In this document: positions 4,462-55,501 of the stretch, in pieces
Numbering within the stretch: the first letter of the stretch is position 1
How the letters are laid out: each line of letters begins with the position of its first letter
Virus record (IMG/VR): IMGVR_UViG_3300008954_000001
Reading direction: 5' to 3' (one strand)
Source of the DNA: a virus
Lineage: Duplodnaviria > Caudoviricetes
DNA: 64,000 nucleotides
Made by a program: the position numbers and the translations under genes
The notes under the pieces: generated by a model
Database searches by the model: none
What the model saw: the letters and a program-made list of their open reading frames with translations, nothing else
Told to the model about the DNA's origin: nothing

Positions 4462-4810
4462 TTTGGAAAGGCGTATCAGCATAGCCCTAACGCTGCTGTT
4501 CGCTCTGAACGTCACAGATGCTTTACTTACAATTGTTTGGGTACGCCTTGGGTTAGCCAATGAAGCAAATCCTCTTATGGCTGTTTTGGTAACAGACCAC
4601 ACCGTACTTTTCGTATTGGCTAAAGTGTTCTTGGTGTTGGCCGGGTGCTTCCTTTTATGGCGTTTCCGAATACAACCTCTTGCACGACACCTACTGGCAG
4701 TCTGTGTGCTGGCTTATGCGCTTGTAGTAGCGATACACACCCATATGATCCTTCAACTGGATCAAGTCCCACTCCAAGAAATCCAACGCTGTATAGAAGC
4801 GGCCTACTGA
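4424..4810 (+). CDS. DUF5658-like multi-pass membrane protein (start uncertain)
   Basis: LNVTDALLT...EANPLM motif and several TM helices. Confidence 0.6.
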   Translation: MGCFYRHSFRGIDLERRISIALTLLFALNVTDALLTIVWVRLGLANEANPLMAVLVTDHTVLFVLAKVFLVLAGCFLLWRFRIQPLARHLLAVCVLAYALVVAIHTHMILQLDQVPLQEIQRCIEAAY

Positions 4811-7800
4811 ATAGTGGCCACGTCTTCGGGGGAGCACTCGACTTCATGGGGGTGCTCGGTTTGTGGGTGAGCAACAAAGGTAACGCCCATCTTCTCCACA
4901 AAACTTTGGAAGATGCTCATATGTTGGTCTTCCCAAACATGAACAACATCAAAGCCATGTTTGACATGGAGTTGGTGGATGACCTTCTTCTTATAGCTTG
5001 AAGTGTCGCCCCCTTTATTGAGGTACACCTCATCGAAGTTGAGTCCCGCACTCTTCAAGAGTTCTGGCACACGCCAACGGAACCTCCCGTCCATCCTACC
5101 CGTACAACAGATGGCCCAAACATTTGGGTTCCCTATGCTTCGTTTAGCTTCCGCTACGGTTTTACCATCCCACCATTCCTTACCTGGAGCGAGAGGAACA
5201 CACGGAGGACTTAGAGATAATTGGTTTCCCCACCACCCCTTTTGATCCCACCACGAAGGTTTATGTGGGGATCGAAACAACGTCCCATCGAAATCAAACA
5301 AGTGTAGTTCTTTTCGGCCACTGGCCCTTAGACGGCGGTTTACCACCTGTTCAACCATGCCGGGATCAAGAACCTCTCCTTGCCTCCTCGCCAGAAAACC
5401 CACCTGGCCTCTCAAAACCGGACCATTGATCTTTGTGTATCCTCGACCAAGTAATTTGTTGCTGTAGGCAGGGGAAACACCGTTCACCGCAACCGTAATA
5501 TGGGCGACACCCTTGTCTTGTCTTTGAATCCCTCGTGGTTGCACAACAACCGCTTGCCCGTGCTCGTCTGCGCCGTACCCAACCACTTTGAGTGCAATAC
5601 TGGCCCCGACAGGGAGATCCATGATTTCTTTATCGGTAGGCCCAAACTTGATGGTCATGTGGTGCGCTTTCACAGTTGGGTGAAGCGGCCCCACATTCTT
5701 TGTCCACCATCGCAGCAGTGCTTGAGAGTCAGACAAGAACACACCTGAGTACACAGCCTGACCAGCAGTTCTGCTAACGGCGAAGTTTTCGTATTCCCCT
5801 TTGATTACTTTCTCGAACCATTCCTTGTGCTCTTTAGGTAGGGTCTTGGTGGCTCGCATAGAAGCGGCTTCGCAGAGGTGCTCTTCGGCATCGGAAGCTG
5901 CGTAAATGGACGGAAACTTGAGTTTGTTCTCCGACTTCTTAAACCAGCCGAAGAGCGTCATTCGTTCTACTGTGCCTATCTCTTTCTTTGTGGCGATATC
6001 TACAAGATGGGCGGCTCCCCCATTACTCCCGTACTCGCTAACCATGACCTCTTTATTGTTGACCTGCATAGGCAACACTTCGCCCACTTCGGGCAACTTG
6101 GTTTCCACCCTCTTTGTGCTCAAGTCGGAATGGTATTGCCGCCACCTTTGCCAAATCGCCTTATCGAGAAACTTGTTCTTATAGCGATGGGTTAGTTCGT
6201 GGATCAGGTTTTGAACAGCACTGACTTCGGAGATGCCTTTACCACTGACCCGAAAGTAAACGGCATCTTTGGAAGGCATGTACCAAGCAGCCCAATTTGG
6301 TCTGCCGATCTTTCCAACGATGTACACATCCCCATAAAGGGTACGAGCAAACCTCGGCAACCCTGTTCCTCGCTTCGATTTTCGGACAGCCTTTTCAAGA
6401 ATCTGAGAGATCCGTGCTCTTTCCGCTTCGTCAGCACCAACCGTGTCGTGAACTGTGAATGGCCCAACTGTCCAAATGCCCCCACCTTCGCTGGATCTGT
6501 CTTTCCATTTGATACTATCAATCAGGAGGGGCCAACGCTTTTTGTTCGTCCGATACCACTTGTCATAACCTTGCCTTGGTCCTTTCCCCCTGCCGTACCG
6601 CACGGAAAAAAGCCTCGCAAGCATCTCAACACCTTTAGCCCTCCTTGCGGGGATCGCCTTCTTATCGATGACATGCTCAAGCCATTTCCGCCCGATTGCG
6701 TAAAACCTTTGCCACGCCATCCACAGTTCTGCCGTATTGCCCAACCCATGAGCTTCGTTGTAGTCGATGCGACTTTCAAACTCGTAGTAGGTCATCACAA
6801 GGGCCTCGGCCACCAGTGAAGGCGTAGCTTTTTTATCCCACTTCTCCATAACGGTGCCGTCATGGATGTAGGAGTCCTCCATCTTAGGGACAAGGTACTG
6901 TGAGCGTAGCGTTGAGGACTCGTGGCCTACGACTTCTGCGGTCGCTTCAAGGGCTTTCGTGAACTCGGCTTTGAGGATTTCGTCTTTCTCTTTTCGGTCA
7001 GTGGGGAGGGTCTTGCCCTTCTTACGCTGTTCTTTGAGTTGCCTGACCATCTCATCGTTGGCTCGGAATCCACGAATGTCTTTAGCGGTGATGTCGTACT
7101 TCTTTAGGTACTTGTTCACATCCTCTGCTTTGACAATACAATCGTCGCCTTCACACAGGACGGTATCTGTACCCGACTTGCCTTTGAGGGCTTTCTTCAA
7201 CGCTGAAACTGTTGCGTGGTCCGCAACAGTCTTCTTTTGGTCTACGCCTGACTTGCCTGTGTAAGTGAGGGTGGCTTTGCTGCCTGTGATTTTTACATGC
7301 TTGGCTTGAAGCGTGGTGACCCCGAAATGGCCTCGGTCTTTTACGGATTGGTCGTTGCCTACTCGCTCACAGGTTTCGTCCATCAGGGCGACTGCAAGGG
7401 CTGTCAAACGGACTTCGGGATCATCGGATTTGAGATCAGACTTGTACTGTTTCCGCAGGTCCAGGATGTTGCCTTTAAGTTTTTGAATCCGCTTCGCTTT
7501 TTCACGGTTGCGGTGGTCCACCTGTCCTTTGGAATACTCGTAGACGGTGGTCTTCCCAGACCCGTCAGCTTTATCCACCTGTTTCTTCTTCTTGAACTTG
7601 GCGGCTACTCGGCTGGCGGCTGCGTGAAACGTAGGCTGATAGTCAACTCTGGGCCATTTCACGAGGTTCAGGTCTTGATTGACCAACTCAAACTCATCTC
7701 CGACCTTGGGCTTAGGGTAAGACCAATACTGCTGTGCCATGAGTCCGGGGTGTCTCCCGATAGGCTCCAAGTCCTTCGGGTGGATACGCCTGATTTTGAA

Positions 7801-7932
7801 GACCACTTTATCAACGTAGTCGGGATCGGTGGGGTGTGTCTCGATCCTCAAAAGAGCAAGCTCGGAACCTTTCAAGGTCTTGAGGATCTGCCCCTTCCTG
7901 AAACCAGGGTTCGCATCGTATCGGGTGCTCAT
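4804..7932 (-). CDS. Multidomain protein: DNA topoisomerase IB + zincin-like HExxH domain + 2H phosphoesterase + HAD phosphatase
   Basis: TopIB pentad R190 (CERVGN), K227 (GKSG), R287 (DIR), H337, Y346; HELTH (578-582) with downstream YAASDAEEHLCE; 2H motifs HHMT and HITV; HAD motif FDFDGTLF followed by CCTGR. Confidence 0.8.
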   Translation of the reverse strand: MSTRYDANPGFRKGQILKTLKGSELALLRIETHPTDPDYVDKVVFKIRRIHPKDLEPIGRHPGLMAQQYWSYPKPKVGDEFELVNQDLNLVKWPRVDYQPTFHAAASRVAAKFKKKKQVDKADGSGKTTVYEYSKGQVDHRNREKAKRIQKLKGNILDLRKQYKSDLKSDDPEVRLTALAVALMDETCERVGNDQSVKDRGHFGVTTLQAKHVKITGSKATLTYTGKSGVDQKKTVADHATVSALKKALKGKSGTDTVLCEGDDCIVKAEDVNKYLKKYDITAKDIRGFRANDEMVRQLKEQRKKGKTLPTDRKEKDEILKAEFTKALEATAEVVGHESSTLRSQYLVPKMEDSYIHDGTVMEKWDKKATPSLVAEALVMTYYEFESRIDYNEAHGLGNTAELWMAWQRFYAIGRKWLEHVIDKKAIPARRAKGVEMLARLFSVRYGRGKGPRQGYDKWYRTNKKRWPLLIDSIKWKDRSSEGGGIWTVGPFTVHDTVGADEAERARISQILEKAVRKSKRGTGLPRFARTLYGDVYIVGKIGRPNWAAWYMPSKDAVYFRVSGKGISEVSAVQNLIHELTHRYKNKFLDKAIWQRWRQYHSDLSTKRVETKLPEVGEVLPMQVNNKEVMVSEYGSNGGAAHLVDIATKKEIGTVERMTLFGWFKKSENKLKFPSIYAASDAEEHLCEAASMRATKTLPKEHKEWFEKVIKGEYENFAVSRTAGQAVYSGVFLSDSQALLRWWTKNVGPLHPTVKAHHMTIKFGPTDKEIMDLPVGASIALKVVGYGADEHGQAVVVQPRGIQRQDKGVAHITVAVNGVSPAYSNKLLGRGYTKINGPVLRGQVGFLARRQGEVLDPGMVEQVVNRRLRASGRKELHLFDFDGTLFRSPHKPSWWDQKGWWGNQLSLSPPCVPLAPGKEWWDGKTVAEAKRSIGNPNVWAICCTGRMDGRFRWRVPELLKSAGLNFDEVYLNKGGDTSSYKKKVIHQLHVKHGFDVVHVWEDQHMSIFQSFVEKMGVTFVAHPQTEHPHEVECSPEDVATIQ

Positions 7933-8186
7933 TCTTGCTCCTCATGCCGAAACCAGACTCGGAACAGTTGAATGGCTTTCGTCTGCTTGCGCCCTTTGGG
8001 AATAGGGTCTACCAAGACAAGGGGGTTCCCTTTGGGGTCTTTGTCGAACCCAACAATCACACCAGCCTTGTTCTTGTATTTGCCGTACCACACCTGATCT
8101 CCCTCATTCAGCGTAAGCGTGAGGGCTTCTTTCTTCCGTGCGTACTTAGCAGCTACTCTGGCAGCCCAAGGGTTCTCTTTCATCAC
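7929..8186 (-). CDS. Small KOW/SH3-like basic protein with N-terminal RVAAKY tag
   Basis: LNEGDQVWYGKYKNKAGVIVG KOW-like strand pattern; coupled to both neighbours. Confidence 0.55.
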   Translation of the reverse strand: MMKENPWAARVAAKYARKKEALTLTLNEGDQVWYGKYKNKAGVIVGFDKDPKGNPLVLVDPIPKGRKQTKAIQLFRVWFRHEEQE

Positions 8187-10678
8187 ACGCCCTCGTGTTC
8201 GAGGATGGACTTGATTTCTTCTTGGGTCAGCCCCTTATCGAATTTTGCGTGGGCATACTCAACGATCTTGCCGACAAACTGTTCATAAAGTTCGTCGCTC
8301 TTGCCCTCTTTAGCGAGGCGGATCATGTCCTTGTCTTCAAGGATGGTATCGATTTCGGTAGAAGCAATCGTAGATACGGCGTTGACCATCCATTCCACAG
8401 CACTTCCAATACCCCCAAGAGCACCCGTCCCGTAGTTCCCCACAGCTTCAGCCATCGACCCACCCGCAAGCGTAGCTACATCCTGAGCGCCTTCAGCGTG
8501 GAGAAGCATCTTATCCCCTACCGCCGTGTACGCACCGATGCCGATATGGAGCGTAAGGGAGTTCAGAAAGGCTTTACCACCCACGGCGGCAAAGCCACCC
8601 GCAGTTGAAATGCCTCCGGTGGCAATACCGACACCTGTCGCTACTGCTATACCTCCCGCATAGATAGCGGAGCCGTATAGAACATCCCTCTCGCTGGCCT
8701 CTCCTTCACTACATTCAGTTTTGGAGCCTTCCGCATCACACCCCTTGGGCCATTTCTTCTTCTCGCTTGAAGGCACCCGCCCCTCTTTGATGCAATCCAT
8801 CAGAATCGTGGGTGTGTTGATAGCAACATTCCGAACTTCTCGAACGGTCGAGCCAGCCAGCTTTTTAACGATGTTTACAGGATTTGCGTGTTCCAGAATC
8901 TTCTTAGCAAGGCTTTTTGATTTCTTCTCGTCTGTGATCTGCGAAACGGCTTCTTGACCTTCCTTGGTCTGAATAGCTTTCGCTGTGGAGGCTGGCAGCT
9001 TCGTACCCTCAGGCACCCCCGCCGCTGACAAATGGGCTTTAGAAGGTGCGCTACCACCCCCAGAACCACCCCCGCTTTGGCTCTTTACCTTATGGTCACG
9101 CTCTTTGGCATTCGGGTGATCTCGCAGATGTTTCTTCATCGCCTCTTCGGTGGCGTGTTCCATCGCATAGCGATGAGCGACCTTTTGAGCCGAAAGTTTG
9201 AGTAAATAGCGTTCGGTTACTCGGTCTTGGCTGGTCTTGATCCCAGCTTCGGCAAGCTCATCTTCCAGTTCGTCGAGGATATCTTGCAAGGAAGTGGCTC
9301 CTGTGGGGGAACTTGACCCAACCTTCCCCATAGCTTTGTTCATAAATAGTTCCGGGTCGAAAGACAATGTGGGCCTCCCTTGCAATACAGCCCTTTCAAG
9401 AGAATCCTCTACTGAAGCTGTTGATAGGAAACGTAAAATAATCTCAGGATTGATATACGACTTACGAGTAGTATTCGCAGAGTCGTGAGACAAAGCGGCT
9501 TGCGCCACATCAATAGCCCTATTCAAAGTCTCCACAATCGCTTCCACCACCCTCTGTTTCAGGTCGGTTTTCGCTCCTGTGGAAAAGGCTTTAATCCGAT
9601 CAAACAAGGCGGCTTGTTCGTCTCGAAGCGCATCTAAAACAGCTTCCGTAGCCCGTAACTTCCTAAAGTCTGTGGGGGAAACGTCTTTGAACCGCTCTCG
9701 AAAGTAGCGTTGAAGGTCAGAGTAGGTGACTCGTTGGCCCTTGCTGGTAACGAAGATGAACTTACCGCCCTTAGCCTTGTCGGTTTGGGCTTTCAGGATC
9801 TTGATGATTTCAGCGTCCGTAAGGGAAGCGAAGTTATGGCCCCCCTTCTTGCCCAAGAATTCCAGTTCGGCAAAGTTGTCTCGGATGAATCTAACGTGCG
9901 ATGGGCCAAGCGTAATGGCCCCAAACGTCTCGATCTCAACCTTTTCTCCGTTCACCGTCTTAATGGCGGCATTTCCCTCTTTACCGGGTCGGATGCCTGT
10001 CTCCATCATGATCGCAGTAATCAGGGCGGAGAGCTTGATGACCTCATCCCCTGACTTTAGATCCCGCTTCACCTGCTTGGCGATCTGGTTGTAATCCCGA
10101 ATCAGGTTGTGCATTTTGTCGATCTTCTTCCCAAGCGTCAGGTGTTCGTTCTCGAACCGATCTGTGATCCCTTGAACTTGCCCGTTCTCATCGACATCTA
10201 CGACGATGTTATCGGGCAAGAAATCTCGAAGCTCGGTGGGAAGCACTTCCCGCATAGGGCCTTGGGCTTCGGCCATTGTGATCGCTTGAAAGCCCTTAAA
10301 GGCTTGTTTGTGGACTTCTACCAGAGCATCCCGAATAGTTTTACCTTTTGTAAGAACATCACGGGCTTGGTAGAGGATGGCTGACCGCCATGAGTAGGCT
10401 TTGGGGTGGTCGGCTTCCTTGCCGATATAGGTGTCTAAGTATTCGAGAAAGATGGGGTTATTCTTCACCAACTTGACGAAAGCTCTGGCCCTGCGAGAGA
10501 TCGACCCCTTATCCCGACCAGGGTGCTCCACTTTTGCGGAATCCGCATAGGGCTGGAGGGTTTTCAGGAGTTTCTTGAACTCCACCCCCGCCTTGCGGAC
10601 ATGCTTCTCCTGATCTTTTTTGTCTCGTTTGTACTGCCGAGACTCGTTAGTCGGTACTCTTGCCATTCGCTCTCTCAC
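8183..10678 (-). CDS. Second DNA topoisomerase IB fused to a Gly/Ala-rich hydrophobic C-terminal region
   Basis: Pentad R230 (GIRPG), K277 (GKKG), R339 (DFRK), H398, Y408 (SYINP). Confidence 0.75.
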   Translation of the reverse strand: MRERMARVPTNESRQYKRDKKDQEKHVRKAGVEFKKLLKTLQPYADSAKVEHPGRDKGSISRRARAFVKLVKNNPIFLEYLDTYIGKEADHPKAYSWRSAILYQARDVLTKGKTIRDALVEVHKQAFKGFQAITMAEAQGPMREVLPTELRDFLPDNIVVDVDENGQVQGITDRFENEHLTLGKKIDKMHNLIRDYNQIAKQVKRDLKSGDEVIKLSALITAIMMETGIRPGKEGNAAIKTVNGEKVEIETFGAITLGPSHVRFIRDNFAELEFLGKKGGHNFASLTDAEIIKILKAQTDKAKGGKFIFVTSKGQRVTYSDLQRYFRERFKDVSPTDFRKLRATEAVLDALRDEQAALFDRIKAFSTGAKTDLKQRVVEAIVETLNRAIDVAQAALSHDSANTTRKSYINPEIILRFLSTASVEDSLERAVLQGRPTLSFDPELFMNKAMGKVGSSSPTGATSLQDILDELEDELAEAGIKTSQDRVTERYLLKLSAQKVAHRYAMEHATEEAMKKHLRDHPNAKERDHKVKSQSGGGSGGGSAPSKAHLSAAGVPEGTKLPASTAKAIQTKEGQEAVSQITDEKKSKSLAKKILEHANPVNIVKKLAGSTVREVRNVAINTPTILMDCIKEGRVPSSEKKKWPKGCDAEGSKTECSEGEASERDVLYGSAIYAGGIAVATGVGIATGGISTAGGFAAVGGKAFLNSLTLHIGIGAYTAVGDKMLLHAEGAQDVATLAGGSMAEAVGNYGTGALGGIGSAVEWMVNAVSTIASTEIDTILEDKDMIRLAKEGKSDELYEQFVGKIVEYAHAKFDKGLTQEEIKSILEHEGV

Positions 10679-10803
10679 CGCTTACCCCAATAAAGGCACA
10701 CTACTCATAGAGTAGGATAAGAAATTTACCGAGATCCCATCCAACGGACTGTACCGATGAAGCGGGTATTGTGACCGTCTTACTTGGGATTGAGGAATAC
10801 ACC

Positions 10804-11004
10804 ATGATTTACTTAGTGCTCTACACAATGGCTGTTATTTGGGTCGTTGCGGGGCTTCTCTACGCTGACAATTACTTAGTACATAGCAAGACCGAAGTGG
10901 TTTTTGCCCCTCTTTTACTGGTCTTCACCACCTTCCAATTCATTTTGGAGCGTGGATACCGTCTTTATCAACGGGGAACACGATCTTATCTATTCAGCAG
11001 GTAG
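10804..11004 (+). CDS. Small membrane protein
   Basis: GAGGA RBS before ATG 10804; two hydrophobic segments. Confidence 0.55.
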   Translation: MIYLVLYTMAVIWVVAGLLYADNYLVHSKTEVVFAPLLLVFTTFQFILERGYRLYQRGTRSYLFSR

Positions 11005-11006
11005 CC

Positions 11007-11021
11007 GTTGGTTGCCCTATT
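11007..11021 (+). promoter_or_regulatory. Class B element GTT-GGTTG-CCCTATT (putative late promoter)
   Basis: Matches G[AGT]T-N5-CYYTAT consensus; upstream of ORF 11060. Confidence 0.45.
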
Positions 11022-11059
11022 GATCCACTAAAGCAACGGCTGCGGATCAAGGAGGCCCT

Positions 11060-11548
11060 ATGAGCTATTTAATGAACAAAAAGACCCGGTTTCGGCTTGG
11101 GGAGCTTGAAGATGCGGTAGAAGAACTCGCCTTCACACATACAATTTCGGCAGATCACGGGAGCAATCCCGACCAAATCGTGGTGTTTTCCTATAACGCT
11201 TCGGAGTTTCTTGGGGGGACAATGATTGTCTACCTCCGAGATGATGCCACGCCACCCAATACTGGCGTAGCTGAATACCTGTTCGTCAACGATCTTGCCT
11301 CCACACCCAATGCCGAAGCCAGCATAACAAAGGTCGATAAGCGGCATGTTAACGGAACCGCAGACCGAGGCACCACAGATCAACCTCTTAGTAATAACGC
11401 CGAAGCCCACATCGTAGATGGGGTCGTCAATCTGACGGTCGAACCTTCTAATATAGGTGCTCTCACCGCAGGTACGGTGCTGACAGGGGTTGCTTTAGTT
11501 ACCCCCATCCCGAACCTGTGGGAAATGGGCGGAGACCCTGGTGAGTGA
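11060..11548 (+). CDS. Hypothetical beta-rich acidic protein, possibly virion-associated
   Basis: AGGAGG RBS; class B element upstream. Confidence 0.6.
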   Translation: MSYLMNKKTRFRLGELEDAVEELAFTHTISADHGSNPDQIVVFSYNASEFLGGTMIVYLRDDATPPNTGVAEYLFVNDLASTPNAEASITKVDKRHVNGTADRGTTDQPLSNNAEAHIVDGVVNLTVEPSNIGALTAGTVLTGVALVTPIPNLWEMGGDPGE

Positions 11549-11550
11549 CC

Positions 11551-11793
11551 CTACTTGAACACTCGGTCTTTAGCTGTCTCGAACAACTGTGGAAGAAAGC
11601 TCTTTTTGAGGCGTAGAAGTCTCTCGAACTTCACCTTCTTACGAGCATCCACATAGAGTTGTGTAGGCTTCTTAATCTCGCCCTCAATAAGCTGATCCGA
11701 GAAATCATAGAACTTGGTACGCTCAGGGGGCTTCGCATAAGCATTGGTGTGGAAAAAGCTCAGAGCCAAGACCATCAGTAAACCCCTAATCAT
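11551..11793 (-). CDS. CglF/GltF-like small secreted protein (myxobacterial gliding-motility family)
   Basis: Signal peptide followed by YDFSDQLIEGEIKKP...YVDARKKVKFERLLRLKKSFLPQL, matching my recollection of the CglF DF-x-D-x-I-E-G-E-x-x-K-P...F-x-x-L-(I/L) signature. Confidence 0.55.
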   Translation of the reverse strand: MIRGLLMVLALSFFHTNAYAKPPERTKFYDFSDQLIEGEIKKPTQLYVDARKKVKFERLLRLKKSFLPQLFETAKDRVFK

Positions 11794-11962
11794 CGTCTGG
11801 CTCCTCTACCCAAGAGGAAAAGCTCAAACCAAGACCACAACATGCCATGCTGATTAGACCTAAAAGCATTAAGTCCGTATTCCCCATGGCGGTCGCTAAC
11901 CCAAACAGGGCTAAGTTCATGCCCAAAGCACCAACCACAAGATCCCTGAACAAGCGTCTCAT
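11786..11962 (-). CDS. Small two-helix membrane protein (58 aa; not in ORF track)
   Basis: Manual translation MRRLFRDLVVGALGMNLALFGLATAMGNTDLMLLGLISMACCGLGLSFSSWVEEPDDD; fills the gap between coupled neighbours. Confidence 0.55.
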   Translation of the reverse strand: MRRLFRDLVVGALGMNLALFGLATAMGNTDLMLLGLISMACCGLGLSFSSWVEEPDDD

Positions 11963-11965
11963 GGC

Positions 11966-12301
11966 TCAACCCTCTTTGTTCATGGCTTCCATCAACTTGA
12001 TAGCCATGAGCCACTGAAGCATCTTTTGAAGGTCCATTTCAGGGGACTCTTCAGTAGGCGTAGCGGCTTGGGTTCTAAGAGAGCACCAATCTTGGGTGGA
12101 CATTTGCGGGCCGTAAGCACCGCTTGAAAAATCGGCGGCCCCCATTTCGGCGGCCTTCGTGTCCCCACCCGAAGATGACGACCCCGTGTTTACAGCAGGG
12201 GTAGCTTCCGCACCCCCAACAGCGGCGGCTCCTGAACCAGCACTAACTGATCCGCCAGCGTTAGCTGCGCCTCCCGCTCCTCCAACTCCTCCAACATTCA
12301 T
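11966..12301 (-). CDS. Gly/Ala-rich low-complexity protein with amphipathic C-terminal helix
   Basis: ORF with AGAAGG RBS; C-terminus MDLQKMLQWLMAIKLMEAM. Confidence 0.55.
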   Translation of the reverse strand: MNVGGVGGAGGAANAGGSVSAGSGAAAVGGAEATPAVNTGSSSSGGDTKAAEMGAADFSSGAYGPQMSTQDWCSLRTQAATPTEESPEMDLQKMLQWLMAIKLMEAMNKEG

Positions 12302-12310
12302 AACCTTCTC

Positions 12311-12505
12311 TCACTTTGGTTTGTTCCATGGCTTTTTGCCCCAAGCGATGAGAAGTGCTTTACAAAGAGTCAAAACGATTCGATTGTGGTTGTGGAAGAT
12401 ATTCAACTGCTGTCTACCCGACAGCGACAACCATTCTCTTACTTGTTCTTCCGAAAGAGTTTCTGGGTCCCAGTTTGGTTCTTCAGATTTCTTTCGATAG
12501 GACAC
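12311..12505 (-). CDS. Hypothetical protein (likely GTG start at 12505; ORF track extends to 12598)
   Basis: AAGGTGAGG RBS before GTG. Confidence 0.45.
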   Translation of the reverse strand: MSYRKKSEEPNWDPETLSEEQVREWLSLSGRQQLNIFHNHNRIVLTLCKALLIAWGKKPWNKPK

Positions 12506-14763
12506 GACCTCACCTTTGGAAAACCCACATCGTTGGGATGAATACATTGTTGTGTAGGTAGGTGCAGCCACATTTCTTGTGTTTGGTGTGTACCGCACTG
12601 CGTTGGTTTATGTTTCAGTTTTGAGAGAGATTGAAACTGAAACACTCCAAAAGCAGCGGGAGAGAACCGCATAGTTCTATGAATAGGTAACAATAGGGGA
12701 TCAATCGAATAACTGTCCCATAACCAAGCCCCTTGCTGGGCATCTTCGCCACCACAAGCGGTTTCTTCAAGGATATCCATAAGGTTGTCGAACATCACTT
12801 GTGGGTTCGCAGTAAGCTGAAACCAAGACCCGCCAACGGAAACAGGCTCCCACCCAAGAGGGCCAATTTGCCCCCCACCACCCGATTTGCTGAAAGTGTA
12901 GATGGATAAATCATCCGCAGCGGCGGCCCACTCTTGGATAAGGGGTTGTGTTGTCATGGGGTTAAGAAAACTTTGGCCGTGTTCATCAGAGAAGATAATT
13001 ACGACGTGGTGAACATCCTCTCGCCAATTGATATGCCAGTTATCAATGCTGGGATCAGACCCCACTCCGAAGCCCCCCCAATTCAGTGGGGGTAGTGCGG
13101 GCACATCTCCAGGCTCAACCAGATTTCTAATGCTCAAAAGCAAAGCATCGTAAAGCATCTCGCTGCTCGTGGGTTCATCATCTACCGTCGCCAAATGCCC
13201 CAAGAACTGATTGAAGGGAACGAGATTGGTAGCCAAATGAAGAGTGTCATCGAAGTTTTGATCGATTGGCCCAACCACCAAACCCCATTGGACAACTTCT
13301 TGATCCGCATAATGGGTTGAAAACATACCCATCGCTTGCTGAACAGCATTGATTGTAGAGGACATGGAGCCAGAGGTGTCCACGATGAAGAGGACATCGG
13401 TGTCTTCTAAGACATTTTCAATGACTCCATCACAGTTGTCATCCTGACCTGTGCATAAGTCTTCTTCCAGCGGCGTAACTTCTCCCAGACACATGTCTTC
13501 AACGAAAAACTCGTCTACAAAGTTGCCCCACTGACCACTTACGCACAACATATCCCCAGGAGCGCAAACCCCAACATTCACGGTTCCTTCTGGCCCTGTG
13601 TAGCATTGGGCCATCAAATCCTCATCGATCAGTTCGTCGCAATCGTCATCAAAGTTGTTGCAAATCTCCTCCACAGGAGTCCCGCCTGTTGGGTCACACA
13701 CTTCGTTTGGTTCGGGCAACCAATGGCACATAGCAAAACATTGTGTCATTTGAGTTGTTACACAGTTTTCATCGGCGCACTCGCAGGACTTGAACCCTTG
13801 TCCACAAAGGAGCGGGTCTTCCATGCACGGGATCAAGAACCCGATCATTTCGGGCGGGCAAGCACAATCCAGCCCATCATCGATCAGCCCATTACAGTCG
13901 TCATCTAATCCGTTGCACTCTTCGGGCATCGGGGGCTGTGCGGTGCATCCTGTCCAAGCTCCCTCAATGCAAAATTCAACCCCTTGCTCACAGTCGGTTT
14001 CACACCCTTGAAGCAACTCTTCGTCTGTCAATGCGTCACAGTCGTTATCGAGGCCGTCACAAACCTCTGGGACGGGTAGAGGGGCATCGCAAAGGACTAA
14101 CTCGCCTTCGATGCAAAGAGCGTTTCCTGGCCCACACTCGGACTCACAGGGGTACTCCCCTTCGTCCACGACTCCATCGCAATCGTTATCTATCGCATCA
14201 CAGATTTCGACCTCACACGGAACACAAGGGCCAGCCATGATCTGCCCCTTCTCGCAGGTGAAGTCTTGAAGTCCTGTATATTCCTCCCCGTTCTCATCTA
14301 TGTCCGTGCAAGGGACATCTTCATTGACGATGATATCTGGGTTGGTGGGATCACACTCAAGCCAATTTTCACACTCTCCCATACTGACCACTTGCCATTG
14401 GCAGTCGGGGTCGTTGGCGAAAGCGGGGGTACAAGGCTCTCCGTTGGCATCGCAGACATCTAAAACCAAGGCTTGCATATAGAGGGCGGGATCGTCTCCG
14501 GGAGGGTGGCCGTCAGGGGTGCAAAAGAACATTTGGGTTTTCCAGCACTGCTGCTGGTATTCATATTCTTCCCCACAATGACAAGGTACGCCGCAGCATC
14601 CCGAATCCGCTTCCTCATCGGGGGTATCCGCATCTATGAAGGGAATGTCGGCATCTGAAGGGGTGGATATTCCCCGTTCAGGCACATCGGCTTCGTTCCC
14701 GCTTCTGTTTTCCGTACACCCGAAAACGGCCAATACCGCCAACAACCACAATGTTTTCTTCAC
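12439..14763 (-). CDS. Lipoprotein with Cys/Asp-rich CDxxDNDCDG repeats and a vWA domain
   Basis: Lipobox-like AVFGC; repeated CDAIDNDCDG/CDGLDNDCD/CNGLDDDCNG/CNNFDDDCD; vWA strand DVLFIVDTSGSMS with intact MIDAS DxSxS. Confidence 0.75.
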   Translation of the reverse strand: MKKTLWLLAVLAVFGCTENRSGNEADVPERGISTPSDADIPFIDADTPDEEADSGCCGVPCHCGEEYEYQQQCWKTQMFFCTPDGHPPGDDPALYMQALVLDVCDANGEPCTPAFANDPDCQWQVVSMGECENWLECDPTNPDIIVNEDVPCTDIDENGEEYTGLQDFTCEKGQIMAGPCVPCEVEICDAIDNDCDGVVDEGEYPCESECGPGNALCIEGELVLCDAPLPVPEVCDGLDNDCDALTDEELLQGCETDCEQGVEFCIEGAWTGCTAQPPMPEECNGLDDDCNGLIDDGLDCACPPEMIGFLIPCMEDPLLCGQGFKSCECADENCVTTQMTQCFAMCHWLPEPNEVCDPTGGTPVEEICNNFDDDCDELIDEDLMAQCYTGPEGTVNVGVCAPGDMLCVSGQWGNFVDEFFVEDMCLGEVTPLEEDLCTGQDDNCDGVIENVLEDTDVLFIVDTSGSMSSTINAVQQAMGMFSTHYADQEVVQWGLVVGPIDQNFDDTLHLATNLVPFNQFLGHLATVDDEPTSSEMLYDALLLSIRNLVEPGDVPALPPLNWGGFGVGSDPSIDNWHINWREDVHHVVIIFSDEHGQSFLNPMTTQPLIQEWAAAADDLSIYTFSKSGGGGQIGPLGWEPVSVGGSWFQLTANPQVMFDNLMDILEETACGGEDAQQGAWLWDSYSIDPLLLPIHRTMRFSPAAFGVFQFQSLSKLKHKPTQCGTHQTQEMWLHLPTQQCIHPNDVGFPKVRSCPIERNLKNQTGTQKLFRKNK

Positions 14764-15080: not shown

Positions 15081-15890
15081 CTAATCTGCCTCTTTCTCCT
15101 TTGTAGGAGGACTTTTCATGGCCTTATCTTTGACAGATTCCATGACTGTCCGAATTCCTGCATAGGGGGGAGAAAAAGCGATATTCTCAAATCCGACCAG
15201 AGTGCCACTGGTGACTCCCACTAATTCACCGTTCTCATTAACGATGGGGGAACCAGAGCTACCGCTTTTTGTTGGGATTGTGTAAACGTCGTATGGGATC
15301 GGCACACCGCCCAAATCTGGGTTTGGTGGGGGGTATTCCGAAGTCGTTCCAGCACTCAAACCTTCCAGTATGGGCAGAAGGTCGGAGCCGAAGGTTCCTA
15401 AAGGAGCGGCCATGGCAAAGACTCTTTCGCCTCGCTTAGTGGGCCGTGGTGCCATTTCAAGGATGGCGGGAGGTCGCATACCTCTGATCTTTAGTACGCA
15501 AAGATCCAAACTCGGATAAATGTCTTCAACAGCCGCTTCGTAAGCGACACCGCCAAGAATCATTACTCGAACATAGGAACTGGTTTCGGGTTCAAAGAGT
15601 TCCCCATCAGGCCCTTGTAAGATAACTTTGTTCGGGGCACAGACATGGCCCGCCGTGATCCCCCATGAATCAAAACCATTTGTGGCGGCTATAAAACCAG
15701 AGCCAGAGAAGGAAGCCCGCCCAAGCTCCATGCACTGATCTCCCACACACGTAGAGAATACGACTCTCTTGATTACAAAGAGAAAGCTGTTGTGGGCGAA
15801 CTGAGAGGGGTTCATCCGAGCGGTGCGAGCACAGGATGTGGTTAAAATAAGCAGTAGCATGGTGCTGATTATTACAATTTGCCGTTTCAT
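15081..15890 (-). CDS. Trypsin-like (S1) serine protease, probable lipoprotein
   Basis: TAGHVC, DLC and GSSGSP catalytic motifs; LTTSC lipobox; ATG 15890 overlaps the upstream stop (ATGA). Confidence 0.8.
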   Translation of the reverse strand: MKRQIVIISTMLLLILTTSCARTARMNPSQFAHNSFLFVIKRVVFSTCVGDQCMELGRASFSGSGFIAATNGFDSWGITAGHVCAPNKVILQGPDGELFEPETSSYVRVMILGGVAYEAAVEDIYPSLDLCVLKIRGMRPPAILEMAPRPTKRGERVFAMAAPLGTFGSDLLPILEGLSAGTTSEYPPPNPDLGGVPIPYDVYTIPTKSGSSGSPIVNENGELVGVTSGTLVGFENIAFSPPYAGIRTVMESVKDKAMKSPPTKEKEAD

Positions 15891-17488
15891 TCTTCCCTCA
15901 CAGGGCAAAACATGGTCCCGATAGGACCGTCTTCGAGATCCACTAAAACACCCATCAAACCAGCTTCACTGGTGACGTAGCCTTTGCCCGAATGCCATGC
16001 GTCTGGCGAAGCAAGGGAGGGCAATAGATAGTGTCTAATGCCGCCGATTTCTTGGATGCGTTGATGATGTAGGTGGCCGCCAAAAGCGACGTGGTGCCGA
16101 GCTTTGCCCCAATCGGCCCGCCGTTCTTTTGCCATAATAGGCCCCAGGTCTTTGACCTTGGCCGTATCGCCATGTGTAAAACAAGCTAAGGTAGTGCCAA
16201 TAGACTGATACACACGCATCTGGTGGTTGCGAACCACCTCTACTCGATTGCTGCCCTCATATGCAGCGTGGAGATAAAGTAGGAGTGCGTGAGAGTTAGC
16301 CCGGTCATGGTTACCGGACATGAGCACAACTTTCACGGGAGCAACCTGTGAAAGAATATCGATATGCTCTCGTTGAAGTTCACAACCCGTCAAAAGAATC
16401 TCCAAAGCGGAGCCTTCCGAATCTTGGGGGGTGCCTTTCGTAGTCGCTTTCTCTGGCCCGATCCCATCAATGTGAAAGAAATCTGACCCTACGGCGACCG
16501 TAATACCTTGTGGTTGACCGGGTAATCGAGAGATCAAGTCTTCCGTACTTTGCATCAATCGTTTTCGGGCAATGGTTCGATTGTAATCGTGACCACTCTC
16601 TCCCGCCCATGAGTACATGCCCCAATGAAAATCTGTGGCTGAAGTGACTAACCAGTAAGGCTTATCCGCCCGATGGAGCTTCAACTTCGGGACCGTGTAC
16701 TCGGTGTGGAAATCTCCAACCCAACCTCGAATACGATTGAGAACTGTGGCCTCAAAATCCCACCAGCTTCGAGCGGCGGAGGCAGTCTCTCTGGCACCAA
16801 GCTCTTCCGTCTTGGTCGCCAAGGCTCCAAACTTTAGAGCTAAAGCGTCTTGCGCCAGTTCATCAACACCACGCTTTGCTACCTCTTCGGCTGAAAAGGG
16901 GGCTGAATCATGTGTGATCCCATGTGACTTAAGGTAGCCGACAACCCAGTTTCGAGGGAGGCCCGTGCGACGAGAGATCCCGTTCAGCGAAACAGGTTGT
17001 CCATCCCAATTTGAATACCAACGAAGAATAGAGCGATGGGCTTCACCAGATGTGGTTACCCATCCCTTTGCCTGTTGGATATATGTTTTGTAGGAGTCGC
17101 CCGCTTCGTCAAAGACATAGAGATTGTGCTCTACATCTATTGGCTCAAAGGCAAGGTCATCCGAGTTAGAGGCTTCTACCTCTAAGTCATCCTCTTCTAA
17201 TGTGTTATCGGACGAGGCTTGTAGGGCCTCGAAAAACCGGATCGTTGTTAAACGGTTCGGTTTGGTTGTTGGAGGGTTTGTATTTGGACCGCCCTCCTGC
17301 TTCACTCGTTTGATGCACAGGTCAACGTCCCATCGTTTCGGTTCGCTGCCCTCGGTCAGGGCCACTAACTGTATTAGGCCAGTACGACCTAATGGTACAG
17401 TGGCAACCTGATCTCCGTACTTCTCCCAGAGTAGGTCGGATCTTTCGCTCAAAGTAAAACCCCCATCCCGTAGCTTCGGGGTAGCCAA
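15887..17488 (-). CDS. Calcineurin-like metallophosphoesterase with N-terminal extension/HTH
   Basis: TDFHWG, GSDFFH, GNHD, HGD and GHLH motifs; TTG start uncertain. Confidence 0.75.
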   Translation of the reverse strand: MATPKLRDGGFTLSERSDLLWEKYGDQVATVPLGRTGLIQLVALTEGSEPKRWDVDLCIKRVKQEGGPNTNPPTTKPNRLTTIRFFEALQASSDNTLEEDDLEVEASNSDDLAFEPIDVEHNLYVFDEAGDSYKTYIQQAKGWVTTSGEAHRSILRWYSNWDGQPVSLNGISRRTGLPRNWVVGYLKSHGITHDSAPFSAEEVAKRGVDELAQDALALKFGALATKTEELGARETASAARSWWDFEATVLNRIRGWVGDFHTEYTVPKLKLHRADKPYWLVTSATDFHWGMYSWAGESGHDYNRTIARKRLMQSTEDLISRLPGQPQGITVAVGSDFFHIDGIGPEKATTKGTPQDSEGSALEILLTGCELQREHIDILSQVAPVKVVLMSGNHDRANSHALLLYLHAAYEGSNRVEVVRNHQMRVYQSIGTTLACFTHGDTAKVKDLGPIMAKERRADWGKARHHVAFGGHLHHQRIQEIGGIRHYLLPSLASPDAWHSGKGYVTSEAGLMGVLVDLEDGPIGTMFCPVREE

Positions 17489-17572: not shown

Positions 17573-17602
17573 ACATGAAGCCACCGTTCATACACAGGGG
17601 AG

Positions 17603-17617
17603 CATAAAGGCCCTATC
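17603..17617 (-). promoter_or_regulatory. Class B element GAT-AGGGC-CTTTATG
   Basis: Consensus match; heads the minus-strand 17488-11551 gene run. Confidence 0.5.
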
Positions 17618-17668
17618 GAAACGAGGGTGGGGGCAGTACCCCCCAATCAACCCCCCTAAAGACTATCG

Positions 17669-17695
17669 GGGGGCTGATTTGTTATCGAAACGGTA
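17669..17695 (+). promoter_or_regulatory. Class A element, copy 5
   Basis: GGGGG-CTGAT-N12-CGGTA followed by AACT; divergent from the class B element at 17603. Confidence 0.6.
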
Positions 17696-17759
17696 AACTG
17701 GATAGTCCTCGAATTTGAGGATGGATAGCTCTTTGAAAAGGAGAAAAGGAGAAGATGGA

Positions 17760-19085: not shown

Positions 19086-20048
19086 TTACTTGTCGTCTTT
19101 TTCTTCGGGCGGGTCGTTGGAGAGAAGCACTTTGACTTCATCCTTCAACGCACTGTCCCAACCACCAGGACGACTGTTCATCTGACCCACATACAAGAGC
19201 TTCCCCTTGGTGGGGTTGATTGAAGTTGGTCGAGAACGCTGGTCACTTGAAAGCTGAAAGTAGAGTTCGCCTTTTTGACTGTAAGCGAAACGAGTCAAGC
19301 GACCTGTGTAATAGATGGCCTCTCGGTCCTCGCCCTTGGAGATACCTCGTTTGATGTACTGAGCAAAAGATTGCTGATCAGACATGCTCGGTGGATTAGA
19401 CCCACCTCGGAGATAGACACACTCAAGCACAAGACCGCTACGCTCCGAGCCAGAGGCCCCGATGCGAGCCATAGGAGTATGGCGATACATACCAGTAGAC
19501 TTACCTGTCTTCGTACCCTCAATCCGAACGGGAGAGCCAATCTTTGACCCGCTGGACTTATGGATTTGAACAAGGCAGCCGTCGCTTTCGACCTTGGTGA
19601 CTACGCCGTACTCTTCATGGTCGGCATAGTTGAACCTGTCGCAGATGTCTTGGTTAGCTTCTTCAGCACACTTGTACTTGTCGAACTTGACCATTTCACC
19701 AGCCCTGATCGGGCCTCGCTTACCCCCACCACTACCCTTGGGCTTAGGCTGGAGTGGAGCTTTACCGGAAAGCCGCTCAATAATCTGTTCGGTCTTACGC
19801 TCATCATACTTCTTGTTACGATCAACGACCCAAGCAACAAAGCGAGCCGTCTTTTCGTTGAAAGCGACCTTATCACCCTGCTCCCCACCAAACATGGCGG
19901 TCAGGATCTTCTCGGCTTGAATATCGTCGATATCCACATCAGCCAGATTGTTACTGGTAACAAGCGGGATAATGGTGTCCCGAATATCAGGGTTCTCATA
20001 GGCAAGACGAACAAGGTCTGCCCGCAATTCTTTTTCCGATTGGCTCAT
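19086..20048 (-). CDS. Hypothetical basic protein with N-terminal LRADLVRLAYENP motif; possible virion internal protein
   Basis: Long ORF; class B element upstream. Confidence 0.7.
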   Translation of the reverse strand: MSQSEKELRADLVRLAYENPDIRDTIIPLVTSNNLADVDIDDIQAEKILTAMFGGEQGDKVAFNEKTARFVAWVVDRNKKYDERKTEQIIERLSGKAPLQPKPKGSGGGKRGPIRAGEMVKFDKYKCAEEANQDICDRFNYADHEEYGVVTKVESDGCLVQIHKSSGSKIGSPVRIEGTKTGKSTGMYRHTPMARIGASGSERSGLVLECVYLRGGSNPPSMSDQQSFAQYIKRGISKGEDREAIYYTGRLTRFAYSQKGELYFQLSSDQRSRPTSINPTKGKLLYVGQMNSRPGGWDSALKDEVKVLLSNDPPEEKDDK

Positions 20049-21077: not shown

Positions 21078-21136
21078 GGGAAAAGTCTCCTTGTTGGTTC
21101 AGTTACAGCCAAGGGTGGCTGCTAATAGTGAGAGGC

Positions 21137-21347: not shown

Positions 21348-22289
21348 TTAATGCCATCTTCGCCCTCGATATCGAGAGGCGACTTTGCGGGCGGTGTGTT
21401 TGAGGACTACGTTGGAAGCCCACATTCCGTAATCATCACGGGGGCCGTACTTGGCCTCATAGGGAATGTCATAGTCGGGGTCTTCATCTGGCGGCTCATA
21501 TCCTGGCTGATTCATTTCCCAAACATTCTCAAGATTCCGCCCTAAAAGAGCGAATGACCCATCCGAGTGTTCTTGGTGTATTTCCTCCAACTCGTCCATC
21601 TGCTTGTCCGTGTAGTCACGTCGTCGCACTTCGAGCCGATCCGCCATAGCGTTGTAGTCGGGCTTGGAGGGTTGTTTTTGAGGCCGCTCAGAGATGTTGT
21701 ACTTGCGGAACATCTTCTCTGCGAAAGCGATTTGCTTATCTGATGGCTGGCGAGTCTTAGCCCGTTTACCCACATCTTCGGCAAACCTCTGCACATAACT
21801 ATCGTTTGCGGCCTTCGCTGCGAGCCATAATTGACGGAGCCTTTCAAGAAACGTCTCATCTGAGGAATAACTTGAACCCGAACCGCCCGATTCCTGTTGT
21901 TTCGGCTCGGCTTCCTCACCACGCCCGATTCGGTCATAGAAATCAGGGTACTTTTGGTACACGCCTTCCCAATGCCGAACGCCAGCGAGCCAAGTCTTTT
22001 TCCAACCCTTTGTTCGCATAAAGGATTTGCGATCCTTTGCCTTCGCATTGAGAACCCGTCCCGTGATGCGACTGACAAGCGTGAGCTTCATGGAGGCTTT
22101 ACCAAGCCCTCGAACTTGGGAAGTCGCTCCAATAGAGGAGGAGAGCTTGATGGCCACGGAGTCACTGAGATGAATCAGATAGATCCCCGCAAACTTTTGA
22201 TCCCGTGACCAGTTCCTACCGAAGTTGCGGCGAAGCCACTCTTCTAACTCTTCACGAGAAATCTGAACATATCGATCACCAGCAGCCAT
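21348..22289 (-). CDS. Hypothetical protein with C-terminal KVASRY tag
   Basis: Long ORF coupled to the UvrD gene. Confidence 0.7.
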   Translation of the reverse strand: MAAGDRYVQISREELEEWLRRNFGRNWSRDQKFAGIYLIHLSDSVAIKLSSSIGATSQVRGLGKASMKLTLVSRITGRVLNAKAKDRKSFMRTKGWKKTWLAGVRHWEGVYQKYPDFYDRIGRGEEAEPKQQESGGSGSSYSSDETFLERLRQLWLAAKAANDSYVQRFAEDVGKRAKTRQPSDKQIAFAEKMFRKYNISERPQKQPSKPDYNAMADRLEVRRRDYTDKQMDELEEIHQEHSDGSFALLGRNLENVWEMNQPGYEPPDEDPDYDIPYEAKYGPRDDYGMWASNVVLKHTARKVASRYRGRRWH

Positions 22290-54262: not shown

Positions 54263-54287
54263 GATTACGGCCATTCAACGGACACCG

Positions 54288-55076
54288 TTAGAACATGATT
54301 GCCCAACCGAGAATTCTATACTTCTGATCCGTGCGGTTGAGAAAGGCAAGACGTAGTTTAGAGGCGGGTTCACAAAAAGCGATGGGTTCAAGCCGATGTA
54401 CTTTGAAATAAGCGGCCCCATCATTCACCGATAGAAGGACATCCAAGCCGTCAGGTTCTTGCTCAATAAAATTGAATACTCGCAAAGCTGGCTCATTCGT
54501 GCCTGCTTGGAAACCAAAATCCGTCATAATATCTTCTGTGGTGTCGATAGTAGTGATCAACCACCACACCATGAACTCATCGGCCCCACAATCATCGACA
54601 AAAGGAGCAATATCCAAGGTGTCTGTGATGAGGAGGCCCGGACGAGGAGGGTCTACGGTGTTGTTTTGTGGGAGTACGAGCGTTGATCCCGCCGCATTAC
54701 CCTCTTGTGGGCCAGGAACACGGCCAAGCTGCGCTCTGGACTTGTGGGCCAGCATAGGAGGGCCAACCTCGGTCAAGCCCGCCCCTAAGTCATAGTCTTC
54801 CACATCTTCGGGAAGGATATTGGGGCTGTAAACAATGTTCCCGTACATAGGGTATTGAGCCAACAAGCCTTCAAAGGCTTGAAACACAAGAGATTCGGGA
54901 GCATACGGGTTGGCTAAATCATCTGAGATGACCTTCGCCCCCGGCTCAATGTCGAGATCAGATCCTTCTGGCACGGGCAGAAGGTATCGCCCATTCACAA
55001 GCATCTGCTCACCAAGTTCGGGGGATTTCCCAACTTCGATTAGCTTATTGTCTGTGTAATTGACGATAACTTTCAT
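54288..55076 (-). CDS. Hypothetical acidic protein, probably virion-associated
   Basis: Long ORF between giant structural genes. Confidence 0.65.
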   Translation of the reverse strand: MKVIVNYTDNKLIEVGKSPELGEQMLVNGRYLLPVPEGSDLDIEPGAKVISDDLANPYAPESLVFQAFEGLLAQYPMYGNIVYSPNILPEDVEDYDLGAGLTEVGPPMLAHKSRAQLGRVPGPQEGNAAGSTLVLPQNNTVDPPRPGLLITDTLDIAPFVDDCGADEFMVWWLITTIDTTEDIMTDFGFQAGTNEPALRVFNFIEQEPDGLDVLLSVNDGAAYFKVHRLEPIAFCEPASKLRLAFLNRTDQKYRILGWAIMF

Positions 55077-55501
55077 TTTGACCCCCCCGTAGCGTATCGA
55101 TAGGCCACCTCTCTGGCGAAATTATCGACATTTTCTCGATACAGGGAAATGGCCCCATCTCGTTCTTGGGCAACGAGCTTTTCAATCGCCCTTGGGTCAT
55201 TACTAAAGGCTCGACCTCTTCCAGAGGTGGCGACTTTTGTATCTGCGGTCCATTTGATCTCGCCTTCGGGGTCTACAAAGCCGAGAACGGTGTAAGAAAT
55301 CGCCCCTTCTTCGTAAGGCTCCTGAAAGCTCACTGAACAAAATCCAGACCCAACTCGGATGTGGGGCTTGCTGCGGTATTTACGCCCAAAATGCTTACCC
55401 CAATACTCACACTCAATCTTGAGAGCATTAACCGGGGCGGCCAACTTCCAACGAGAGGCTACTTTCCGAGCTTGATGTCTTTTCAATATTTTCGGGATCA
55501 T
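55073..55501 (-). CDS. Basic hypothetical protein with KVASRW and EVAYRY tags (likely ATG 55501)
   Basis: GAGGAAGG RBS; ORF track extends to 55528. Confidence 0.6.
   Translation of the reverse strand: MIPKILKRHQARKVASRWKLAAPVNALKIECEYWGKHFGRKYRSKPHIRVGSGFCSVSFQEPYEEGAISYTVLGFVDPEGEIKWTADTKVATSGRGRAFSNDPRAIEKLVAQERDGAISLYRENVDNFAREVAYRYATGGSK

Follow-up and report, generated by a model that had tools for sequence, protein, structure and literature searches.

The stretch of DNA considered here, referred to as the window, comprises 64,000 nucleotides (positions 44349-108348, in G000 coordinates) of the genome of an uncultured phage, IMG/VR record IMGVR_UViG_3300008954_000001. About 323 kb of this genome are on record, of which 152.5 kb were analysed. 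Our subject is a short basic peptide, designated tag A, which recurs in otherwise unrelated proteins encoded in this genome. A sequence-only reading of the window had drawn attention to seven copies of the peptide as a candidate signal for virion packaging or proteolytic processing, and all seven are present in the open reading frames (ORFs) and at the residues it gave. They are set out below, together with a copy and a variant encoded outside the window. Proteins are named by the first coordinate of their ORFs, and coordinates are those of the window unless G000 is specified.

7594..7611, minus strand: RVAAKF, residues 108-113 of the 1042-residue 4804-7932 protein, at the junction of its N-terminal module (residues 3-110) and its topoisomerase IB (TopIB) module
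8142..8159, minus strand: RVAAKY, residues 10-15, at the N-terminus of the 85-residue 7929-8186 protein
9206..9223, minus strand: RVTERY, a loose copy, residues 486-491 of the 831-residue TopIB-like 8183-10678 protein; hidden Markov model (HMM) score 17.2
9167..9184, minus strand: KVAHRY, residues 499-504 of the 8183-10678 protein, some 100 residues beyond its TopIB domain
21369..21386, minus strand: KVASRY, residues 302-307 of the 313-residue 21348-22289 protein, six residues before the C-terminus
55448..55465, minus strand: KVASRW, residues 22-27, near the N-terminus of the 151-residue 55073-55528 protein
55094..55111, minus strand: EVAYRY, a loose copy, residues 140-145 of the 55073-55528 protein, six residues before the C-terminus
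G000 21017-21460, outside the window: a tag A copy near the C-terminus of a 147-residue protein
G000 5856-6617, outside the window: a histidine variant of tag A at the N-terminus of a 253-residue protein

The peptide is much more frequent than amino acid composition predicts, as the sequence-only reading had expected. Motifs were counted in 147 greedily called ORFs (49,232 residues) from the 152.5 kb of genome and compared with 400 within-protein shuffles. The strict pattern [RK]VA.[RK][YFW] was observed six times against an expectation of 0.24, and the looser pattern of the earlier reading eight times against 0.70; none of the 400 shuffles reached either count. Extension of the pattern to A.[RKE]VA.[RK][YFW] gave six occurrences against 0.03 expected, again with no shuffle out of 400 reaching the observed number, and the enrichment in this genome is 25-fold to 200-fold over composition. 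The alanine at position -2 was absent from the pattern first proposed and therefore argues independently for treating the copies as one group. In this genome the tag has the form A-x-[RK]-V-A-x-[RK]-[YFW]. A profile built from the copies scores them at 17-23 bits and one further copy at 10 bits, with the background at 1 bit or less. Codon choice varies between the copies, so that conservation is at the level of the peptide and a DNA-level repeat or recombination joint is ruled out. Nor do the carriers share a hidden domain, since their likeness is confined to 9-15 residues of the tag; only 4804 and 8183 have more in common, namely the TopIB domain (E = 1e-13). The copies are concentrated towards the ends of proteins, six of nine being no more than 30 residues from a terminus (binomial p = 0.0016); three are N-terminal, three C-terminal and three internal. 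A group of tandem paralogues of about 200 residues (34177-37966, plus strand), all of which end in GGASR[FY][FY]K, is superficially tag-like and scores at background with the tag profile.

The peptide recurs in related genomes. The sole related record in the phage collection searched was LR745208.1, an unannotated 485-kb uncultured phage genome, which was examined in its entirety. Here the core VA.[RK][YFW] was found 22 times against 7.1 expected, and with a following leucine (VA.[RK][YFW]L) nine times against 0.64, reversed, scrambled and Leu/Ile-substituted controls all being at expectation. About 20 LR745208 proteins are tagged, in the form [RK]-V-A-x-R-[FYWH]-L, and terminal placement is again favoured (p = 0.0035). 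A second set, anchored on homologues of the 85-residue protein, consisted of 50 non-redundant IMG/VR loci totalling 0.94 Mb, on contigs of up to 619 kb. These contain 65 matches to [RK]VA.[RK][YFWH] against 3.1 expected (1 against 3.3 for the reversed control), and 24 of the 65 lie outside the anchor gene.

Individual families tell the same story of retention. Of 21 homologues of the 85-residue protein, 19 retain its N-terminal tag, at identities as low as about 45%, with variable residues preceding it and a constant spacing between tag and domain. The single homologue of the 151-residue protein, 74% identical, retains both tags unchanged, and an orthologue of the 8183 protein on a metagenome contig (L017) has KVAERH at the equivalent position. 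The largest body of comparisons came from an exhaustive profile search with the tag and TopIB segment of the 4804 protein, of which the best 149 of 571 homologues were analysed. A canonical tag stands at the N-terminal edge of the TopIB module (RVAAKYKxKKEVPKADGxG) in 58-72 of the 149. About 61 further tags lie elsewhere in these proteins (12 N-terminal, 9 C-terminal and about 40 internal), and those away from the module give the logo [SA]-[AP]-[SA]-R-V-A-x-R-[YHWF]-L-[EAQ]-A. The consensus of tag A for the clade is [SA]-[AP]-[SA]-[RK]-V-A-x-R-[YFWH]-L-x-A. Among the 55 tags away from the TopIB module, to which this test was confined, 64% are no more than 15 residues from the point where a non-TopIB module defined by BLAST ends, compared with 34% of random positions (0 of 1000 trials). 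Together with the terminal bias in this genome, this bears out the earlier remark that the tags sit at termini or domain boundaries. The polyvalent TopIB proteins carry one to three tags each and 63 of the 149 have none above threshold, and so the tag does not mark every junction.

No cultured phage was found to carry the tag. The alignment to TopIB homologues of cultured Xanthomonas, Erwinia and Rhizobium jumbo phages begins only after the tag. Searches for IMG/VR loci with the 4804 or the 55073 protein found no related locus, and tblastn of the 55073 protein against phage records gave no match. Pfam and PHROGs returned no match for the small tagged proteins, for a 1902-residue and a 4346-residue protein, or for most of the tagged LR745208 proteins. 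Full-text searches of the literature yielded no description of tag A peptides.

Structure predictions place the tag outside the folded parts of its carriers. In an AlphaFold2 model of the 85-residue protein, made with the family alignment, a tag-bearing helix (residues 6-18; predicted local distance difference test (pLDDT) score 66-69) is followed by a linker and a confident five-strand SH3/KOW-like barrel, which carries the invariant sequences GKYKNK and PKGRK. A Foldseek search of the PDB with this model returned only generic KOW/Tudor/PWWP-like barrels, with E values of 0.02 or above. In many relatives this barrel domain forms part of the giant TopIB protein. In the TopIB model the tag stretch has a pLDDT of about 52, and the fold, with values above 87, starts directly after it with a beta-hairpin; a tag forming an integral part of the TopIB fold is thus unsupported. 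At the moderate to low confidence of these models, tag A is predicted to be a short tethered helix outside both folded domains. It has the properties of a short linear motif, being short, tethered, conserved in orthologues with variable flanks and portable between unrelated proteins.

The 85-residue protein may itself be oligomeric. A four-copy complex prediction scored 0.48, compared with 0.00 for the best of three controls; the mark used for such scores was reached by 20 of 30 solved one-chain pairs and 1 of 23 solved single chains, and is a rough guide for this case, which used its own alignment and four copies. Contact agreement between the complex runs was at least 51% and partner pLDDT at least 57. 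The predictions support, without showing, self-association through the barrel and linker (residues 19-82). Association of tag with tag is unsupported, as the confident interface residues omit the tag, and the models provide no evidence either way about the tag residues.

Two further short modules accompany tag A.

19959..20030, minus strand: module B (ELRADLVRLAYENPDIRDTIIPLV), at the N-terminus of the 320-residue 19086-20048 protein
9074..9151, minus strand: module C (TEEAMKKHLRDHPNAKERDHKV), immediately behind the two tags of the 8183 protein and ahead of its Gly/Ser linker

Both had been noticed in the sequence-only reading as short motifs related to the tag. They are real and they are not tag A: LRADLVRLAYENP is an N-terminal copy of module B, and EEAMKKHLRDHP is module C. 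Module B spans 25-29 residues with the consensus TLRSKLIRLAHENPxLRxxLLPLLK, in a helix-Pro-helix arrangement, and is found on unrelated proteins. There are eight copies in LR745208 (11 places in a separate search of the record) and three in an 864-residue protein of this genome (G000 10685-13279, minus strand); among phage records it was found in LR745208 only and in no cultured phage. In form it is similar to a two-helix docking unit of the kind known from encapsulin cargo and the P22 scaffold. Module C, of about 25 residues, has the consensus ELDxYLKxHPxADxxxHxV with two conserved histidines, and leads into Gly/Ser linkers. At least six strong copies occur in TopIB polyvalent proteins, and two in the 864-residue protein, each after a module B. 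Since module C is preceded by tag A in the 8183 protein and by module B in the 864-residue protein, tags A and B hold equivalent places.

The carriers of tag A include large fusions whose domains are otherwise unrelated. The clearest example in the window is the 4804 protein, with the following parts.

4804..7932, minus strand: 1042-residue polyvalent-type fusion, with an N-terminal domain, tag A, TopIB (Pfam, residues 140-341, 1.6e-26) and a HExxH module (residues 385-713, approximately)
4804..7932, minus strand: distal modules of the same protein, 2H-like (residues 720-857, approximately) and HAD_SAK_1 (residues 896-1015, Pfam 8.8e-12)
5323..5349, minus strand: QVVNRRLRA, at the 2H/HAD junction of the same protein; below the HMM threshold, recognised by eye only and not significant

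Comparison with the 149 homologues by BLAST puts the module boundaries at residues 110, about 367-385, 712-725 and 854-876, and the junctions proposed in the sequence-only reading (about 367, 721 and 862-870) coincide with these independently defined boundaries. At best, QVVNRRLRA is possibly a degenerate tag A, its V, R, L and A matching the clade consensus RVAxR[YFWH]LxA. The 385-713 module contains HELTH at residues 578-582 and has no Pfam or PHROG peptidase match at E < 0.01. In the 8183 protein the two tags and module C lie beyond the TopIB-like domain, and a Gly/Ser linker then leads into a hydrophobic region rich in glycine. This last region (residues 660-790; window 8183-8700 approximately, minus strand) is a long Gly/Ala/Ile-rich stretch of the glycine-zipper type, which looks like a membrane-inserting segment such as occurs in some ejection proteins.

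The 4804 protein belongs to a very large family. At E < 1e-30 there are 571 cluster representatives of the TopIB family, from 318 to 3381 residues in length, with TopIB at almost any position. In LR745208, HAD and TopIB are joined in a 508-residue protein in the order HAD, tag, TopIB and C-terminal tag; the 2H phosphoesterase stands alone there, with a tag after it, and a 283-residue protein consists of an N-terminal tag and then ART-PolyVal. A TopIB protein from a Tara Oceans contig (L019 7425-12971) also has SOD, PAP2 and PolyA_pol domains. It is adjoined by an AcrVA2-like gene (Pfam PF26125; L019 4269-5612, minus strand), a patatin-like gene and a gene for an amidase with a PG_binding domain, and the neighbourhood looks like a counter-defence one.

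The architecture resembles that of the polyvalent proteins described by Iyer et al. in 2017 (PMC5512222), which unite disparate domains, zincin-like peptidase, 2H and ART among them, have genes close to those for portal and terminase, and were proposed to be packaged and injected, with autoproteolytic processing also proposed. The 4804 protein, in which TopIB, HAD_SAK_1 and two further homology modules are joined in one chain, and its more than 571 TopIB relatives share this organisation. The portal/terminase context is present in LR745208 and in 10-20 of the 50 IMG/VR loci and absent from the window. The Pfam models specific for polyvalent proteins gave no match to window proteins at E < 0.01. 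Unlike the proteins of that catalogue, those considered here have a TopIB domain and share a tag peptide: TopIB is not treated there as one of the polyvalent domains (the main text has 'topoisomerase' a single time and neither 'TopoIB' nor 'linker'), and no shared junction or terminal peptide is mentioned (PMC5512222).

The main evidence for a connection with the phage head is the position of the tagged genes in relatives. In LR745208 the large terminase gene is followed by those for the portal (phrog_16240, 1e-33), a 134-residue protein, the tagged HAD-TopIB protein, a scaffold-like acidic protein of 211 residues, a tagged 193-residue protein, a homing-endonuclease-like protein, a 221-residue scaffold-like paralogue and the head maturation protease (phrog_18299, 2e-10). 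Ten of the 50 IMG/VR loci have both portal and protease in view, and in these the order is portal, a giant TopIB and SH3-like protein (1700-3100 residues), a scaffold-like protein, the 193-residue family and protease; all eight of their profile-level tags lie between portal and protease. A head gene lies within 10 kb in 20 of the 50 loci. In the present genome the TopIB and SH3-like modules are split over the adjacent 8183, 7929 and 4804 genes, with their tags retained. Also near the head module of LR745208 is a 1229-residue protein (392525-396214, minus strand) with a C-terminal LDLF tail and a LAGLIDADG insert at residues 396-583, which looks like an intein.

Judged by these sequence comparisons, tag A is a real, conserved and portable docking motif that is independent of position. 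As to what it docks to, we lean on balance, and by no great degree, towards its being a position-independent address tag that loads cargo into the head. A basic amphipathic helix on a flexible tether, situated at either terminus or at a domain junction, would dock to one conserved receptor of the assembling head, which might be the scaffold or core, the capsid interior or the portal. The docked proteins would be enclosed in the procapsid and then delivered with the DNA; in the window the candidate cargo would comprise the two TopIB fusions, the small SH3-like protein and small orphan proteins. From context only, we infer that the receptor is a head component and that the cargo is packaged and ejected. 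Head cargo is favoured because of the positions of the tagged TopIB and SH3-like genes between portal and protease in relatives. Indirect support comes from the presence of the tag on ART-PolyVal, 2H, HAD and TopIB, enzymes typical of injected polyvalent proteins.

A number of observations weigh against a head address. The argument from portal-adjacent genes is one of guilt by association; the tagged genes of LR745208 are dispersed across its genome, those of the window lie apart from the head module, and no relative carrying tag A was found among cultured phage records. The 21348 family deserves particular attention. Its gene in the window (21348-22289, minus strand) overlaps the stop codon of a UvrD-like helicase gene (22289-25768, Pfam 3.8e-41), and in LR745208 too the family lies directly downstream of the UvrD-like helicase. 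Tag A forms the C-terminus in 13 of 27 homologues; the others, including the LR745208 orthologue, end instead in NGxPAxxLF. Tails of a similar D-L-F type are found at the C-termini of several proteins of the LR745208 replication module; we take them to resemble docking tails of the clamp or SSB type. Such a swap fits a portable docking peptide exchanged between docking hubs that are not necessarily capsid-related, and the reader of the tag may be a hub of this sort. The tag would then gather enzymes of DNA and RNA at the phage nucleic acid, by docking them to a DNA-bound, replisome-associated or other intracellular assembly. The alternation of tag A with NGxPAxxLF at one C-terminal position, the LF-type tails of LR745208 replication proteins and the many carriers that act on nucleic acids (TopIB, 2H, HAD_SAK) all speak for this explanation, which we consider rather unlikely. 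The sequence-only reading had named equal occurrence in replication genes as a point that would tell against a packaging signal; there is one helicase-adjacent case, 21348, and no tag A was found among the replication-module proteins at 29-45 kb of the window. ART-PolyVal and the SOD/PAP2/nucleotidyltransferase-TopIB carrier of L019 are not replisome parts, and the giant TopIB/SH3 gene lies between portal and protease in many relatives. A signal for import into a phage nucleus is unlikely on sequence grounds: the chimallin phiKZ gp054, compared with LR745208 and G000 by blastp, phmmer and tblastn, a test at the level of sequence, gave nothing better than E = 0.02, a result that weakly disfavours such a signal. 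The tail swap of the 21348 family provides a concrete test case by which a capsid reader could be told from another hub.

The remaining explanations assign the tag a different kind of role, or none. The sequence-only reading had proposed a clade-specific code for addressing or for cleavage, and its two halves have fared differently. The addressing half is supported: the tag is conserved and portable, has its place at termini or where modules end, and is predicted to be a free helix. Under the cleavage half, the tag or a basic-x-Ala core would be recognised or cut by one of three enzymes (the prohead protease, the peptidase of the embedded HExxH module or a nearby trypsin-like peptidase), and polyproteins would be split into single domains. 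The tags are indeed situated at module ends, and 39 of 49 diverse homologues have L-D-K-x-A/G at the end of the TopIB module, where pLDDT is low and beyond which the sequences diverge. There is a HExxH module inside the 4804 protein and a Trypsin_2 gene (15081-15908) upstream on the same strand; these are possible processing enzymes, and nothing connects them to the tag. Autoproteolysis of polyvalent proteins, as mentioned above, is a published proposal (PMC5512222). Against this, for half of the tags of this genome and LR745208 a natural terminus is no more than 30 residues away, and a cut there would yield no useful product; a protein with one to three tags, or with none above threshold as in 63 of 149, is poorly suited to a splitting code. 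The sequence beyond the tag shows no conserved Glu and no other conserved residue of a cleavage site; position +6 is E in 18 of 70 copies from relatives and in none here. The supposed code of basic-x-Ala linkers did not survive comparison with chance: outside the TopIB end, L[DN]K.[AG] occurs 14 times against 17.5 expected, and the ends of other modules show no excess of it. The 4804 protein has nine [RK].A sites, and two of its three junction windows contain one, a marginal result. Of the individual linkers, KKA (6826-6834, minus strand; residues 367-369) belongs to a conserved end of the TopIB module, where it may serve as a linear motif, or a processing site, specific to this module, and is not a general junction motif; RTA (721) is unsupported. 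Cleavage at the tag is on this evidence distinctly unlikely. We regard as very unlikely a tag that has no dedicated reader, being a capping or linker helix, or an amphipathic helix that binds membrane or nucleic acid, tolerated at borders and spread by shuffling. The short basic amphipathic helix on flexible linkers and its occurrence where modules join speak for such an explanation. A passive linker would not be expected to show the specificity that is seen, in which 67 of 70 copies have R at position 3 and all 70 have His or an aromatic residue at position 4 (V and A are invariant by the way these copies were anchored, so that R and the aromatic/His position are the informative columns). Nor would such a linker persist at the very ends of single-domain proteins that are 45-78% identical, and the codon differences between copies exclude a DNA-level recombination joint. 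Finally, the motif was defined after it had been sighted, and RVTERY and EVAYRY were admitted only by a loosened pattern. The chance that it is a coincidence chosen after the fact is practically negligible, given that no shuffle of 400 reached the observed count, that the independent Ala at -2 is present in six of eight copies, and that the enrichment reappeared in a second, independent genome and in the 50 IMG/VR loci, where reversed controls stayed at expectation.

The head-address reading finds parallels in established systems. The capsid-targeting sequences (CTSs) of phage T4, carried by the internal proteins IPI-III and by Alt, are strictly N-terminal sequences of about ten residues, which the gp21 protease removes by cutting after Glu (L/I-x-E). 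They load unrelated proteins into the prohead for co-injection, and tag A is likewise common to unrelated proteins; moreover Alt is an ADP-ribosyltransferase, and LR745208 bears tag A on ART-PolyVal. Unlike the T4 CTS, tag A occurs at the N-terminus, at the C-terminus or internally, as the three copies of each kind in this genome illustrate, in place of the extreme N-terminus alone. It has no sequence likeness to the CTS and no conserved Glu following it, and its role in packaging is putative. In phage P1, DarB has an N-terminal packaging signal, its loading depends on DarA and Hdf, and the methylase-helicase is injected to protect the DNA. The likeness lies in large enzymes being loaded into the head by means of a terminal signal; no motif common to many proteins is known for the Dar system, nor any sequence relation to tag A. 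Encapsulin cargo-loading peptides and the C-terminal helix-turn-helix of the P22 scaffold are short, often basic, and dock to the inner face of an HK97-fold shell. They are comparable to tag A in principle only, without sequence similarity, and internal copies are unusual in those systems.

It is attractive to consider tag A as one element of a wider scheme, which we offer tentatively and hold to be plausible, short of probable. An address code of at least three modules (A, RVAxRY-L; B; and C, YLKxHPxAD) in a large uncultured clade of huge phages would load a changeable enzyme arsenal for co-injection, read by a putative conserved head protein, and the fusion and splitting of tagged genes would give rise to giant polyvalent proteins. 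Its cargo would include topoisomerase IB, RNA-repair 2H and HAD enzymes, ADP-ribosyltransferase, SOD and nucleotidyltransferase. Topoisomerase IB and the RNA-repair modules would, as candidate injected cargo, be new with respect to the published catalogue of polyvalent proteins. If correct, the scheme would permit the proteins injected by huge phages, among them first-strike counter-defence enzymes, to be listed from sequence alone for a clade without a cultured member, and would account for the evolutionary assembly and splitting of giant polyvalent proteins. A short label able to work at either end of a protein or internally could also serve to bring foreign proteins into phage capsids.

Several other features were noted around the TopIB cluster. 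Upstream on its strand lie genes for a Trypsin_2-type serine peptidase (15081-15908, minus strand, 3.3e-15), the possible processing enzyme referred to above, and for an Mre11/SbcD-like exonuclease (15887-17488, minus strand, phrog_704, 6e-55). An intergenic motif consisting of a G-run, CT(G/A)ATTT and, some 10-20 bases on, CGGTAA (for example GGGGGGCTGATTTG...GTCGGTAAA) is found at 1408-1446 and 17600-17714 of the window, at G000 16900-17000 and at other places, and CGGTAAAT lies upstream of the 8183 gene. This shared motif may be one of the promoter classes recognised in the sequence-only reading.

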